From IMG/VR virus record IMGVR_UViG_3300023184_009405: a stretch of DNA of 20,000 bases; one strand, 5' to 3'. A program made the position numbers and the translations under genes. The notes under the pieces were generated by a model, which saw only the letters and a program-made list of their open reading frames with translations, was not told where the DNA came from and ran no database searches. How positions within the stretch are numbered: the first letter of the stretch is position 1; every line of letters begins with the position of its first letter. The DNA comes from an uncultured virus (IMG/VR IMGVR_UViG_3300023184_009405) (Duplodnaviria; Heunggongvirae; Uroviricota; Caudoviricetes). This document shows positions 1,354-20,000 of this stretch, piece after piece.

Positions 1354-2001
1354 ATGGAGAAGTATTTAGAATACGAATTTATTAAAGATAATGATTTAAA
1401 TATTTGTTACAAGAAAGGTCTTGCATATCAAAATGATATGAAACAAAGTATAGATTATGACAATGATTATTTTGAACATTATGTAGTTTTAGAAGACACA
1501 GAAATATCAAAAAGGATTAATGCTGTTAGAACTAATCTTACAGAAAAACATGTAAAATGTTTAATAGATGTTGGAATTGGTAGTGGAGAATTCATAAAAA
1601 AATCTAAATGTAAAACATATGGATTTGATATTAATCAAAAGGGAATTAGTTGGTTAAAGGAAAGGAATAAGTTTGTTGATATTTACAACGAAACTATTCC
1701 TGAAGATGTTAAAGGATGGACTTTTTGGGATTGCTTGGAGCATGTCCCAGAGCATTCAAAAATATTTAATTTATTGCAAAAAGATCAATATTTATTTTTA
1801 TCTTTGCCTTATTTTGAAAATTTGGATAAAATTAGAGAGAGTAAGCATTATAAGCCTAACGAGCATTATTATTACTTTACTCAAAATGGACTAATTGATT
1901 ACATGCAAGATTGTGGTTTTGAATTAGTAGAATATAACTTCGATGAAACAAAAGCAGGAAGAAGCAACATAATAGCATGTTGTTTTAAGAAAAATGGCTA
2001 A
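1354..2001 (+). CDS. Class I SAM-dependent methyltransferase (Methyltransf_23-like)
   Basis: Motif I LIDVGIGSG, YGFDIN, FWDCLEHVP, EHYYYFT; overlaps the next gene by 8 nt. Confidence 0.8.
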   Translation: MEKYLEYEFIKDNDLNICYKKGLAYQNDMKQSIDYDNDYFEHYVVLEDTEISKRINAVRTNLTEKHVKCLIDVGIGSGEFIKKSKCKTYGFDINQKGISWLKERNKFVDIYNETIPEDVKGWTFWDCLEHVPEHSKIFNLLQKDQYLFLSLPYFENLDKIRESKHYKPNEHYYYFTQNGLIDYMQDCGFELVEYNFDETKAGRSNIIACCFKKNG

Positions 2002-2899
2002 AAAAGTATTTGTTACTGGCGGATCTGGATTTGTAGGTTGGAATTTGACTAATTTTTTACTTGATCAGGGTTATAAAGTATTTACTACTTATAATGGTGG
2101 TGGAAACTTGCCTGATAAAAGGGCTGAGATAATTTCTAGAAATTATTTTGGCATAAATATAGAAAATCATAAATTCGATGTAGTTTTTCATACAGCAGCA
2201 AACAATGATGCTCGTTGTCAAAATGTAAAATATCTCTATGACTTAAATGTTAAAGATACAGAAACATTATTTAATGTTTGTTATAACAATGGCTGTAGGA
2301 ATTTTATATATTCTTCAAGTACAGCTATTTATGGAAGTCAGCCTATTCCTTACATAGAAGATGAAACAAAAATTGATCCTTTGAATTATTATGGTTTATC
2401 TAAAGCTAATATGGAACATGCTGTAAATAGATTTTTGCAAAATAAAAAAGACTGTGTTGCAATTGCTTTGCGTTATTGTAATGTTTATGGATTTGGTGAA
2501 TTTCATAAAAATAGTCGAGCTAGTATGATTTATCAAATGCTACACAAAAAGATTTTCAAGCAACCTTTGAGTTTATTTAAAGATGGAAATCAAAGAAGAG
2601 ATTGGGTTTATGTAGAAGATGTAGTACAGGCAAATTATTTAGCTTCTAAATATGAAAAAAGTGATTATTTCAATGTTGGCTCTGGAATTTCTACATCATT
2701 CAATGAATTGGTAGAAATAATGAATTTTAAAAATATAAATTATATTGATTGCCCATTTGAAAAAGAATATCAGAGTCACACTCTTTGTGGTTTAGATAAA
2801 ATAAGCAAATGCATTGGTTATAAACCAAAAAATGATATTAAAGTAAATATTTTGAATTTAGAAAAAAAATTAAGGGATTACTTTAAATTGAAAGACTGA
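1994..2899 (+). CDS. hldD: NAD-dependent epimerase/dehydratase, ADP-L-glycero-D-manno-heptose 6-epimerase-like
   Basis: TGGSGFVG, YSSSTAIYG, YxxxK in PLNYYGLSK, LRYCNVYGFGEFHKNSRASM (cf. HldD/RfaD LRYFNVYGPxExHKGxMAS), RDWVYVEDV, C-terminal YIDCPF..YQSHT. The family is secure; HldD specificity is likely but unproven. Confidence 0.75.
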   Translation: MAKKVFVTGGSGFVGWNLTNFLLDQGYKVFTTYNGGGNLPDKRAEIISRNYFGINIENHKFDVVFHTAANNDARCQNVKYLYDLNVKDTETLFNVCYNNGCRNFIYSSSTAIYGSQPIPYIEDETKIDPLNYYGLSKANMEHAVNRFLQNKKDCVAIALRYCNVYGFGEFHKNSRASMIYQMLHKKIFKQPLSLFKDGNQRRDWVYVEDVVQANYLASKYEKSDYFNVGSGISTSFNELVEIMNFKNINYIDCPFEKEYQSHTLCGLDKISKCIGYKPKNDIKVNILNLEKKLRDYFKLKD

Positions 2900-3671
2900 A
2901 ATTATTTTCTTGATAAATTTCTTTTAATTTATTAATTGCTTTTGAAAGAATAACTCTAAGTCCATAGTTTGAATAGCTTTTGCCATTTGATTTTAAAATT
3001 ATATTTTTAGCTTCTTTAACCCATTGTCTTCCTAGTTTAAATTTAAGTTCTATAGCCTTTGTTTCTTTGTCATTTAAATTGCATTTGCTTATTATTTTTT
3101 CAAAAGAAAATTCTTCACTACTAAGATCAAATTGATTATTTTCTCCAAAGATTTCTTTGTAGATTGAGAATTGTTCAAAATTAACATGATTTGAATAAAA
3201 CTTAATGTCAATTTTGCAATTTTTTTGTCTGTATTTTATTTGTTGAATTTTTGAAGCTATTGCACGAAAAAGATAATTAGTGAATTTAATATTATTTTTT
3301 GTGTAATACCAAACGCATTTTTTGAAAACTATATAAGCTTCATTAATGAAATCACTATGCATGTAATAACTTTTACTTTTTTTGAAAAGTCTAGAAACAG
3401 TATAAGTTATAAATTTTTTATATTTTTCAAACATAAAAGGTTCAAGTTTTGAAATTTGATTAATAACATGGAAGTCTTCTTCCCATTCTTTAATTTTTTC
3501 ATTAGGTATTAAAGATTTAATGCTTTCAGGATTGCTCCAAAACATACATAAAAACTTAAAATGTTTTTTGCCAAAAAGAAGCTTGCTCCATTTAAATGTA
3601 ATTTTATTTGATTCTGCTAAAAAATCAAAAATTTCTTGATCACTAATAAATTTCGCATTCATTACACACAT
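2883..3671 (-). CDS. Divergent sigma70-family RNA polymerase sigma factor
   Basis: Region-2-like DFINEAYIVFKKCVWYY...IKFTNYLFRAI; region-4-like LNDKETKAIELKF...LRVILSKAINKLK; start could be 3671 or 3662. Confidence 0.6.
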   Translation of the reverse strand: MCVMNAKFISDQEIFDFLAESNKITFKWSKLLFGKKHFKFLCMFWSNPESIKSLIPNEKIKEWEEDFHVINQISKLEPFMFEKYKKFITYTVSRLFKKSKSYYMHSDFINEAYIVFKKCVWYYTKNNIKFTNYLFRAIASKIQQIKYRQKNCKIDIKFYSNHVNFEQFSIYKEIFGENNQFDLSSEEFSFEKIISKCNLNDKETKAIELKFKLGRQWVKEAKNIILKSNGKSYSNYGLRVILSKAINKLKEIYQENNFSLSI

Positions 3672-18136: not shown

Positions 18137-18247
18137 TTTTTTTTTTTTTACAAAAATAATATATACGATAAGAGTAAAATTTTAAAAGGAGTTACATATT
18201 ATAATTTAAAATTTACATAATTAAATTATACATATTTAAATATATAT

Positions 18248-20000
18248 ATGGCAAATAACTTTGTAATTAGAGACGGTCTTACATCTTTAGGTGGCAATAC
18301 ATTTCATTATGTATCAAAATCAACAACATATACTATAAGTTCTGATGATTACCTTGTAGATTGTACATCTGGTACATTTACAGTAACTTTGCCTACTGCC
18401 GTTGGTATATCTGGAAAGATATACATTGTAAAAAACAGTGGTGCAGGAACAATAACGGTTGATACTACTTCATCTCAAACTATTGACGGATCTCTTACAA
18501 AAACTCTTTCCCAATATAAAAGCATTCAAGTACAAAGCAATGGATCTAATTGGATAATAGCAGGAACTACTGGTGCAACTGGTGAGACAGGAACTACTGG
18601 CCAAACTGGTGCAACTGGTTTTACTGGCTTTACAGGTTTCACTGGCGAAACTGGTGCAACTGGTTTTACGGGTTTTACTGGCTTCACAGGCGAAACTGGT
18701 GCGACTGGTTTTACTGGCTTTACAGGCGAAACTGGTGCAACTGGTTTTACTGGCTTCACAGGCGAAACTGGGGCGACTGGTTTTACTGGCTTCACTGGCG
18801 AAACTGGTGCGACTGGTTTTACTGGCTTTACAGGCGAAACTGGTGCAACTGGTTTTACTGGCTTCACTGGCGAAACTGGGGCGACTGGTTTTACTGGCTT
18901 CACAGGTGAGACAGGAACTACTGGCGAAACTGGTGCAACTGGTTTTACTGGCTTCACAGGTGAGACAGGAACTACAGGCGAAACTGGTGCGACTGGTTTT
19001 ACTGGCTTCACTGGCGAAACTGGGGCGACTGGTTTTACTGGCTTCACAGGTGAGACAGGAACTACTGGCGAAACTGGTGCAACTGGTTTTACTGGCTTCA
19101 CTGGCGAAACTGGTGCGACTGGTTTTACTGGCTTCACAGGTGAGACAGGAACTACAGGCGAAACTGGTGCGACTGGACTTACCTTTACACCTCTTGCTGC
19201 GTCTGGTAATGCAGAATCAACATCTGCTACAGTAGGAACTAATCCATTCAATATATTTTCGACTACAACAGACTCGGCATTTGCTAACGCTGGTGGTACT
19301 TATGTTCGAGTTGCAGACAAGACCGCTGGTTCTACACTTGCATATGTAGGTGAACTGTTTACACAGGTTGCGGGTGGTTTTGGTGTTAACTATCAACTTC
19401 GACCTATTACTGAGGTACACGGAACACCTGTTGCTGGAACATCTACTTCATGGGAAATATCCCTTATTGGTTATCAAGGTTTTACAGGACAGACTGGAAC
19501 CACAGGTGAAACTGGAACCACAGGTGAAACTGGAACCACAGGTGAAACTGGAACCACTGGTGAAACAGGTTCTACTGGTGAAACTGGTACGACAGGACAG
19601 ACTGGAACCACAGGCGAAACAGGTTCCACAGGCGAAACAGGAACCACAGGTGAAACTGGAACCACAGGTGAAACTGGAACTACAGGTGAAACTGGAACTA
19701 CTGGCGAAACTGGGGCGACTGGTTTTACTGGCTTCACAGGTGAGACAGGAACTACAGGCGAAACTGGTGCAACTGGTTTTACAGGCTTCACTGGCGAAAC
19801 TGGTGCAACTGGTTTTACTGGCTTCACAGGTGAGACAGGAACTACAGGCGAAACTGGTGCAACTGGTTTTACAGGCTTCACTGGCGAAACTGGTGCAACT
19901 GGTTTTACTGGCTTCACAGGTGAGACAGGAACTACAGGCGAAACTGGTGCAACTGGTTTTACAGGCTTCACTGGCGAAACTGGTGCAACTGGTTTTACTG
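18248..20000 (+). CDS. Modular collagen-like (Gly-X-Thr) virion fibre protein 2, 3'-truncated by the window end
   Basis: Not in the ORF track (no stop in window). [16 protein letters not shown]...[39 protein letters not shown]...TIDG...[11 protein letters not shown] (105 aa), G-X-T tract 18563-19183, spacer domain 19184-19468 ending [13 protein letters not shown] tract 19469 to end, all in one frame. Confidence 0.9.
18563..19183 (+). repeat. Collagen tract 1 of fibre 2 (69 G-X-T triplets)
   Basis: Higher-order units [12 protein letters not shown] (36 nt) and [18 protein letters not shown] (54 nt). Confidence 0.93.
19721..20000 (+). repeat. Exact 90-nt tandem repeat (at least 3.1 copies) within collagen tract 2 of fibre 2
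   Basis: Identical units start at 19721, 19811, 19901 and 19991. Confidence 0.95.

Follow-up and report, generated by a model that had tools for sequence, protein, structure and literature searches.

A candidate glycan-tailoring gene block beside Gly-X-Thr collagen-like fibre genes in DNA of a probable freshwater megaphage

Glycan enzymes and collagen-like fibres in the window

The DNA analysed here is a 20,000-nucleotide stretch of the uncultured virus record IMGVR_UViG_3300023184_009405 (IMG/VR; Caudoviricetes), and this whole stretch is referred to as the window. Between positions 1354 and 13928 it carries a block of genes for an epimerase, seven glycosyltransferase (GT)-like proteins, three sulfotransferases and three methyltransferases (MTs), followed by two genes for collagen-like fibres in which most Gly-X-Y triplets have Thr at Y (GXT collagens). 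The reading that we prefer, and hold with a little less than even confidence, is that the block belongs to a set of enzymes, encoded across the genome, for O-glycosylation, sulfation and methylation of Thr-rich tracts of the virion. The enzyme and fibre genes are as follows (aa, amino acids).

1354..2001, plus strand: S-adenosylmethionine (SAM)-dependent MT (PF13489, phrog_6564, above cut-off)
1994..2899, plus strand: heptose-type, HldD-like epimerase (PF01370, 147 bits)
3709..4539, plus strand: possible GT2-like protein (weak; no Pfam match, no DxD motif, a language-model lead to GT2 only)
4542..5321, minus strand: GT2 (GT-A) glycosyltransferase (28.8 bits, cut-off 23.3)
5299..6090, minus strand: DUF707 protein, probable GT-A enzyme (28.1 bits, cut-off 24.1; DxD motif)
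6430..7431, minus strand: GT9-like GT-B enzyme, paralogue of 8086-8937 (19.7 bits, below the cut-off of 22; likely start near 7374)
7329..8084, plus strand: GT7 enzyme of the galactosyl/GalNAc-transferase family (70 bits, cut-off 27; likely start near 7410)
8086..8937, minus strand: GT9-like enzyme (15.3 bits, below the cut-off of 22; GT9/TibC-type predicted fold)
9147..9845, plus strand: sulfotransferase (Sulfotransfer_3/Stf0-like, above Pfam cut-off; missing from loci L096 and L131)
9861..10712, minus strand: GT-B-fold enzyme of a large, mostly viral family (no Pfam match; predicted fold, pLDDT 97)
11253..12020, minus strand: sulfotransferase (Sulfotransfer_2, phrog_3347, above Pfam cut-off)
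12036..12668, minus strand: sulfotransferase (Sulfotransfer_2, phrog_3347, above Pfam cut-off)
12640..13236, minus strand: SAM-dependent MT (PF08241, above cut-off; missing from L096 and L097; fused to GT domains in the relative G140)
13296..13928, plus strand: probable sugar O-methyltransferase (Methyltransf_24-like via homologues)
14666..18136, plus strand: collagen-like fibre 1, 1156 aa (fibre N-module, triplets, inserted globular domains, conserved C-terminal domain)
18248..20000, plus strand: collagen-like fibre 2 (128 triplets; runs past the window end)

This gene content had been proposed in a first-pass annotation and is present, with uneven strength among the seven GT-like genes (three above the Pfam cut-off, two assigned by predicted fold and two weak) and with a weak third MT, as the protein of 13296-13928 has no Pfam match of its own and four of its five homologues weakly match Methyltransf_24 (best E 2e-4). 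The domain of sulfotransferases dependent on 3'-phosphoadenosine 5'-phosphosulfate (PAPS) was above the Pfam cut-off in all three genes, and the 5'- and 3'-PAPS motifs are visible by eye, motif patterns having caught just one motif in two of the three. For the epimerase, the best NCBIfam model was ADP-heptose 6-epimerase (TIGR02197; 181 bits, below the cut-off of 274.6) and the best match in the PDB was 3sxp (E 6e-33). We take DUF707 to be GT-A-like. The GT9-like pair had no match in a PDB sequence search, and neither paralogue matched the TibC/Aah model TIGR04414. When the predicted structure of 8086-8937 (pLDDT 86) was searched with Foldseek, chains of TibC (E 8.5e-5, TM 0.48) and WaaC (TM 0.50) filled most of the top ranks, with a sialyltransferase at rank 3, suggesting a GT-B fold nearest to these two heptosyltransferases, about equally, and ADP-heptose as a putative donor.

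The enzymes had been called apparently soluble, and because their highest 19-residue hydropathy is just 1.61, none has a clear membrane span. No Wzx/Wzy, ABC exporter or undecaprenyl-phosphate (Und-P) initiating transferase was found among the 23 window proteins scanned, in agreement with the first-pass annotation, and the Und-P transferase family PF02397 was missing from nine viral records and from the phage contig G006:C1. A cellular contig linked to export of lipopolysaccharide (LPS) or capsule, the case that the annotation had set against its own proposal, is therefore not what was found. Adenosine 5'-phosphosulfate kinase, which would give a phage its own PAPS supply, was found in 0/5 partial records of relatives, and GmhA (SIS_2) was likewise not found in five such records. 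The block is not an operon, as the strand switches 12 times over 20 genes, and five of its genes (those for a sigma-like protein, a dCMP deaminase and three small open reading frames) have no glycan link.

The hundreds of Gly-X-Thr triplets previously ascribed to the fibre genes were confirmed. Counting only triplets in runs of four or more, fibre 1 has 178 Gly-X-Y triplets, 163 with Thr at Y, and fibre 2 has 128, with Thr in 127; taken together, 290 of the 306 triplets have Thr at Y and three have Pro at X. The longest triplet runs are 77 and 69, compared with at most 7 in 200 shuffles each. The block had also been described as directly adjoining the fibres, which proved incorrect: the last enzyme ends at 13928, collagen 1 begins at 14666, and two small genes lie between. 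These and the other interspersed genes are listed here.

2883..3671, minus strand: lineage-specific 262-aa protein, sigma-factor-like by eye only (no family match; outside the glycan set)
6093..6368, minus strand: 91-aa protein (kept in close relatives)
10771..11208, plus strand: dCMP deaminase, interspersed (by family searches)
13925..14200, minus strand: 91-aa coiled-coil-like protein (directly after the 13296 MT)
14302..14571, plus strand: conserved 81-aa protein, the lineage marker (likely start 14326)

The sigma-like protein has only 17 relatives among 1.8 billion representatives, with one homologue in G009. The 81-aa protein is strongly conserved (64-96% over 37 clusters) and is a good marker for the megaphage lineage. 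The sequence TATAAATA, presumably a T4 late promoter, is located immediately upstream of collagen 1 and also precedes the marker gene. Between the marker gene and the copy before collagen 1, a perfect 11-bp inverted repeat with a 4-base loop (~14615-14640) is probably a terminator; L096 and L100 have retained its right arm. At the left end of the window, 285-1271 (plus strand) encodes a protein of the IMP dehydrogenase/GMP reductase family without a CBS insert, with homologues in several relatives. No tRNA genes were found in the window.

Kinship of the phage and distribution of its Thr-rich tracts

By kinship, the window is a piece of a T4-type freshwater megaphage, an assignment for which the evidence is strong but indirect. 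Relatives were recruited by the 81-aa gene upstream of collagen 1 or by the MT, GT9 and epimerase genes. Neither a major capsid protein nor a terminase is encoded inside the window, so the classification called for by the first-pass annotation was reached through relatives sharing window genes: a gp23-type capsid is present in three of the five relatives examined (G001, G003 and G007) and a terminase in G007. Five records give genome sizes of ~440-510 kb by our own arithmetic (record length over CheckV completeness). The N-module of collagen 1, a phage fibre module, matches 111 viral stretches, and the nearest Atlas clusters of the GT-B enzyme at 9861-10712 are 89-96% viral. At least half of the sampled words were present in four sequencing runs from three studies, all lake or freshwater, in a survey that left out the possible source and ignored runs with small shares. 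Among GenBank phages, the 81-aa marker, sigma-like and GT-B proteins had no match and DUF707 had one weak match; viral scans with single proteins (the 81-aa marker; the GT-B enzyme) also gave none. The closest viral record is G140 (90% in the fibre N-domain), to which contig G006:C1 has ~42% mean identity. No test linked the window's contig to the moraphage lineage of PMC12619734. The organism label of bin G006, a bacterium, was rejected, as the bin has nine terminase matches and is largely viral, with a 271-kb phage contig.

Eight close loci (marker 96-99%) retain the gene order over the full reach of their contigs; their enzymes are 53-93% identical, individual genes have disappeared or been added, and all seven of these loci that reach beyond the marker continue into collagen 1. 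At greater distance, collagen was found in 0/55 marker loci, many of them short. Another relative, seen in the five loci L420-L424 (75% in the fibre N-domain), keeps the GXT cluster with a helicase region upstream in place of the block, and 12 block profiles had no match in the 68 kb of G141. The 1354 MT, which is part of a module with a GT9-like gene (and the epimerase) in relatives without collagen, had no collagen in 14 loci or five whole records.

A wider sample of viral GXT collagens was drawn from at least 148 stretches, which gave 78 loci with flanks and, once 11 duplicates were dropped, 67 contigs, including 7 giant-virus bins and 3 without a Thr-dominated open reading frame. Ten GT and sulfotransferase profiles of the window, mostly shallow, had no match in these 67 contigs. 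The GT2 domain (PF00535) was above cut-off in 15/42 viral GXT records (~2.4 Mb, short ones dropped) versus 0/49 fibre-module controls (~1 Mb, the longer of 80). A GT2-TPR family of ~355 aa, found with a profile built from the GXT set, was present in 15/67 GXT contigs versus 0/80 control loci; this profile found nothing in the window at E 10, and in G140 a GT2 domain matching the family (E 1e-63) lies ~24-30 kb from the collagens. The contrast of GXT with Gly-X-Gln (GXQ) or Gly-X-Pro collagens rests on cases met by chance (L379, L393, L427/428). The block thus stays next to GXT collagens in the eight close loci only, and the GT that viral GXT collagens do attract is of a family missing from the window.

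Beyond its collagens, G140 continues in the same orientation with further GXT collagens, a poly-Thr protein, a Sulfotransfer_4 gene, an oxygenase-like gene, RCC1-repeat collagens and two further genes that are sulfotransferase-like by motif alone. L419/L420 show a similar arrangement, with a Sulfotransfer_4 gene (100 bits), a poly-Thr gene and two genes that resemble sulfotransferases at the motif level placed among the collagen genes, all in one orientation. Farther on in G140 are GT25 genes, an HldE-like gene (such genes occur in three relatives) and many GT, MT and sulfotransferase genes spread across 165 kb, ~25 additional enzymes of these types being scattered over the record. Contig G006:C1 has no collagen and nine poly-Thr genes. 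On this contig the window's GT2 (41% over 240 aa) and 13296 MT (36% over 205 aa) have adjacent orthologues, ~1-2 kb from the largest poly-Thr gene cluster, in which one protein has the C-terminal domain of collagen 1 (36% over 85 aa, E 7e-12); since the GT2 profile gave one strong match in 48 records, this GT2/poly-Thr link is a single case. The GT2 of 4542-5321 has an orthologue paired with the 13296 MT family in two other phages. Inside the block of L099 and L131, between the 13296 MT and the 13925-14200 gene, stands an RCC1 plus poly-Thr/Ser gene that is convergent with the former, and in L393, from a phage of 62% G+C, a GXQ collagen, two mucin-like genes, a GT2, a GT-B orthologue and an MT stand in line. 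The enzymes of the lineage are thus supported as tracking Thr-rich tracts generally, whether collagen or poly-Thr.

Several other features of these relatives were recorded. G140 encodes a 1029-aa GT9-MT-MT-GT2 fusion (L460:8074-11160) whose GT2 belongs to the GXT-linked family, a candidate for an initiator and tailoring enzyme in one chain. A second GT2 family, not in the window (L393:7562-8449, L460:5605-6480, L516:19684-L517:583 and L212:549-1376), lies within 1 kb of mucin-like genes in two of four genomes. Proteins of 175-210 aa with sulfotransferase-like motifs and no Pfam match stand beside Thr-rich genes in two relatives (L419:7019-8066 and L329:11412-12038). Propellers of RCC1 repeats on stalks of GXT collagen or poly-Thr occur in many copies (L419:9194 onward, L461, L517, L099) and are possible receptor-binding heads. 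In L425-L429, from other phages, the same fibre N-domain is joined to G-T-S, G-S-S or G-X-Q repeats; because one N-domain carries G-T-S (L425) or GXQ (L427/428) repeats, the repeat chemistry of the fibre is modular. L425 also encodes a true TibC-family enzyme near its G-T-S collagen (TIGR04414, 282 bits, cut-off 200).

A proposed virion coat and its alternatives

Gene content, folds, gene neighbourhoods and phage kinship are what the coat reading builds on, and the phage probably sugar-coats its own particle. We infer that the fibres are virion parts, presumably trimeric. The block would be one of several clusters that together form a cytoplasmic glycan-tailoring kit spread over the genome. 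In an infected cell, the first sugar would be attached to Thr in exposed tracts of the virion (GXT collagens and poly-Thr linkers) by an initiating transferase whose gene probably lies beyond the window. Extension of this glycan, in part with ADP-heptose from the phage's own HldE/HldD-like enzymes, would fall to the window's GT2, GT7, DUF707, GT9-like and GT-B enzymes, and the sulfotransferases (using host PAPS) and MTs (using host SAM) would then cap it, in a coat that may shield the fibres or tune their adhesion. Enzymes without membrane spans or export partners, and a block-collagen order kept in close relatives, support such a kit. So do the poly-Thr genes near the GT2 and MT orthologues of G006:C1, the gene inserted into the block of L099 and L131, the sulfotransferase genes among the L419/L420 collagens, the excess of GT2 in viral GXT records, the GXT-linked GT2 domain of G140, the HldE-like genes of relatives, and the precedents of SgtA and the mycobacteriophages. 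From the earlier proposal of cytoplasmic decoration of the phage's own fibres, the phage origin, the cytoplasmic enzymes and a virion role are supported by kinship and gene context; the collagen-dedicated system is weakened. Helix stability, adhesion and shielding had all been suggested as purposes. Because poly-Thr linkers take the place of collagen among these genes, the last two are a better fit than stabilisation of the helix alone.

A number of observations weigh against a kit for Thr-rich tracts. Among the best 80 of 529 viral loci of the GT-B family, a GXT collagen was present in 0/80, a GXQ collagen in two and mucin-like tracts in two, and when 38 longer records were searched whole, any collagen was found in 3/38, including 0/9 near-complete ones. 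The GT9/MT/epimerase module occurs in G001 and G003 with no collagen and no Thr-rich genes, L349 combines the GT2, MT and GT-B families in a single operon and is free of Thr-rich genes over 15 kb, and L379 has a GT of the GXT-linked family near a GXQ collagen. The presumed late promoter TATAAATA was found before 0/15 non-fibre enzyme genes checked, giving no support for late expression of the enzymes; because it precedes collagen 1 and the marker but no enzyme gene, co-expression of enzymes and collagen is not supported. A proximity signal does favour the kit, since in five records with Thr-rich genes such a gene is found no more than 3 kb from 6/19 GT2/sulfotransferase genes versus 1.1 expected, but it comes from a test with post hoc thresholds in which four of the six matches are from G006:C1 and G140 contributes 1/10, and which leaves outside three records with GT2 and no Thr-rich gene. 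Finally, bacterial collagens have Thr at Y more often than any other residue, and most of them are not glycosylated, according to the accessible text of PMC8968730.

The first alternative, which we consider unlikely, is a remodelling of the host envelope, whose LPS core, O-chain, capsule or glycolipid the enzymes would alter at the cytoplasmic face and so block superinfection, fibre proximity reflecting a shared variable host-recognition region. The HldD-like epimerase, the HldE-like genes of three relatives and the WaaC-like folds are LPS-core chemistry, soluble enzymes could borrow host carriers and exporters, and the enzyme families are mostly unlinked to Thr-rich genes. Moreover, this is the published reading for T4-like pelagimyophages, which encode rfaE and have tail fibres and GTs in a variable region, as described in the available part of PMC7029224, although that reading is itself inferred from annotation. 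However, neither the window nor the relatives yielded a membrane or Und-P component, the match of 8086-8937 to WaaC is equalled by that to TibC, which transfers heptose to protein, and sulfotransferase and mucin genes are interleaved with fibre genes.

It is also quite unlikely, in our estimate, that the glycan is carried by capsid, tail tube or decoration proteins, in the manner of mycobacteriophages, and the Thr-rich fibres are bystanders. The same families in near-complete phages without collagen (0/9), the L349 operon beside genes resembling terminase and portal (labels by eye), and the occurrence of the GT9/MT/epimerase module in records that encode a capsid but nothing Thr-rich all fit this explanation. 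It leaves unexplained the GT2 and MT pair that stays beside Thr-rich genes after the swap of collagen for poly-Thr (one case), as well as the poly-Thr/Ser gene insertions in L099/L131.

That the 12.5-kb block is a self-contained pathway for the GXT collagen, chiefly stabilising a Pro-poor triple helix, appears improbable. Adjacency in close relatives, the scarcity of Pro at X (3/306) and the precedent of Riftia cuticle collagen (in the available text of PMC11766948) favour such a pathway, but the 12 strand switches, the five unrelated genes, the L420-L424 collagens without the block, the 0/12 block profiles in G141, the GXT-linked GT2-TPR gene not found in the window and the ~25 more such enzymes dispersed over G140 argue against it. 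Dedication of the block to GXT collagen, as originally claimed, is accordingly not supported, given also the 0/80 of the GT-B family. Hypermodification of phage DNA, or synthesis of a small glycosylated, sulfated metabolite, is very improbable: a dCMP deaminase lies within the block and the top Foldseek matches of the GT-B enzyme are DNA glucosyltransferases (T4 AGT E 2e-4), but the TM-scores are just ~0.5, BshA, PimA and others rank above AGT in a wider structure search (Z 14.5 vs 12.2), and TET/JBP was not matched in nine viral records or G006:C1 (partial genomes; the hydroxymethylase family was not searched).

Large phages of aquatic habitats encode glycan genes by the dozen, and these are usually interpreted as modifying host LPS. 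A bolder form of the coat reading, which we regard as doubtful, is that lake megaphages wear a self-made glycocalyx of heptose-containing, O-methylated, sulfated O-glycans on interchangeable Thr scaffolds (collagen or poly-Thr) of their fibres. No description of a sulfated phage fibre glycan, or of any sulfated bacteriophage particle, was found in the literature searched, most subscription papers being outside its reach. If a sulfated particle coat is real, the adhesion, grazing resistance and host range of such phages would read differently, and soluble Thr-directed transferases and sulfotransferases would be on hand for glyco-engineering collagens. The lineage offers a testable contrast, with the same enzymes and two kinds of Thr scaffold.

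Comparison with known glycosylation systems

Phage-encoded GTs that decorate the particle have a counterpart in mycobacteriophages, whose virion glycosylation was reportedly described by Freeman et al. 2023. Capsid and tail tube carry glycans in these phages (second-hand, via the available parts of PMC12619734, PMC12582341 and PMC12691614); the acceptors there are capsid and tail-tube C-termini, and collagen, sulfate and heptose go unmentioned in those parts. T4-like pelagimyophages and cyanomyophages resemble the window in having several GTs with tail-fibre genes in a variable region, and rfaE and collagen-repeat proteins in the same genomes (PMC7029224). They differ in that their genomes are far smaller and their GTs are read as modifying the host O-chain; the available text of that paper has no mention of sulfotransferase and does not consider a Thr-rich acceptor. 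In Mimiviridae, as far as the accessible part of PMC9614988 describes, clusters of GT and MT genes serve fibril glycans, sulfate-metabolism genes occur in Moumouvirus australiensis and Cotonvirus, and viral collagens are likewise present. These are eukaryotic viruses, however, and their collagen enzyme L230 acts on hydroxylysine, whereas the collagen repeats of the window are almost free of Lys.

The TibC/Aah and WaaC enzymes share with the window the fold of 8086-8937 and heptose-pathway genes, although neither GT9-like paralogue matches TIGR04414, unlike the L425 enzyme. In Clostridioides difficile, SgtA adds N-acetylglucosamine to Thr of BclA3 collagen peptides in vitro, and a GT gene likewise stands beside a collagen-like gene with Thr at Y (from the available text of PMC7157674). 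The viral GT2-TPR family has the size and layout of SgtA by the description there, compared without alignment. In that system the structure is a spore rather than a phage and the repeats are GPT, as opposed to GAT/GET/GFT with little Pro here; a GT2-TPR gene is missing from the window, whose sulfotransferases and heptose enzymes have no counterpart in what is described. The window system would be a variant of already known virion and collagen glycosylation.

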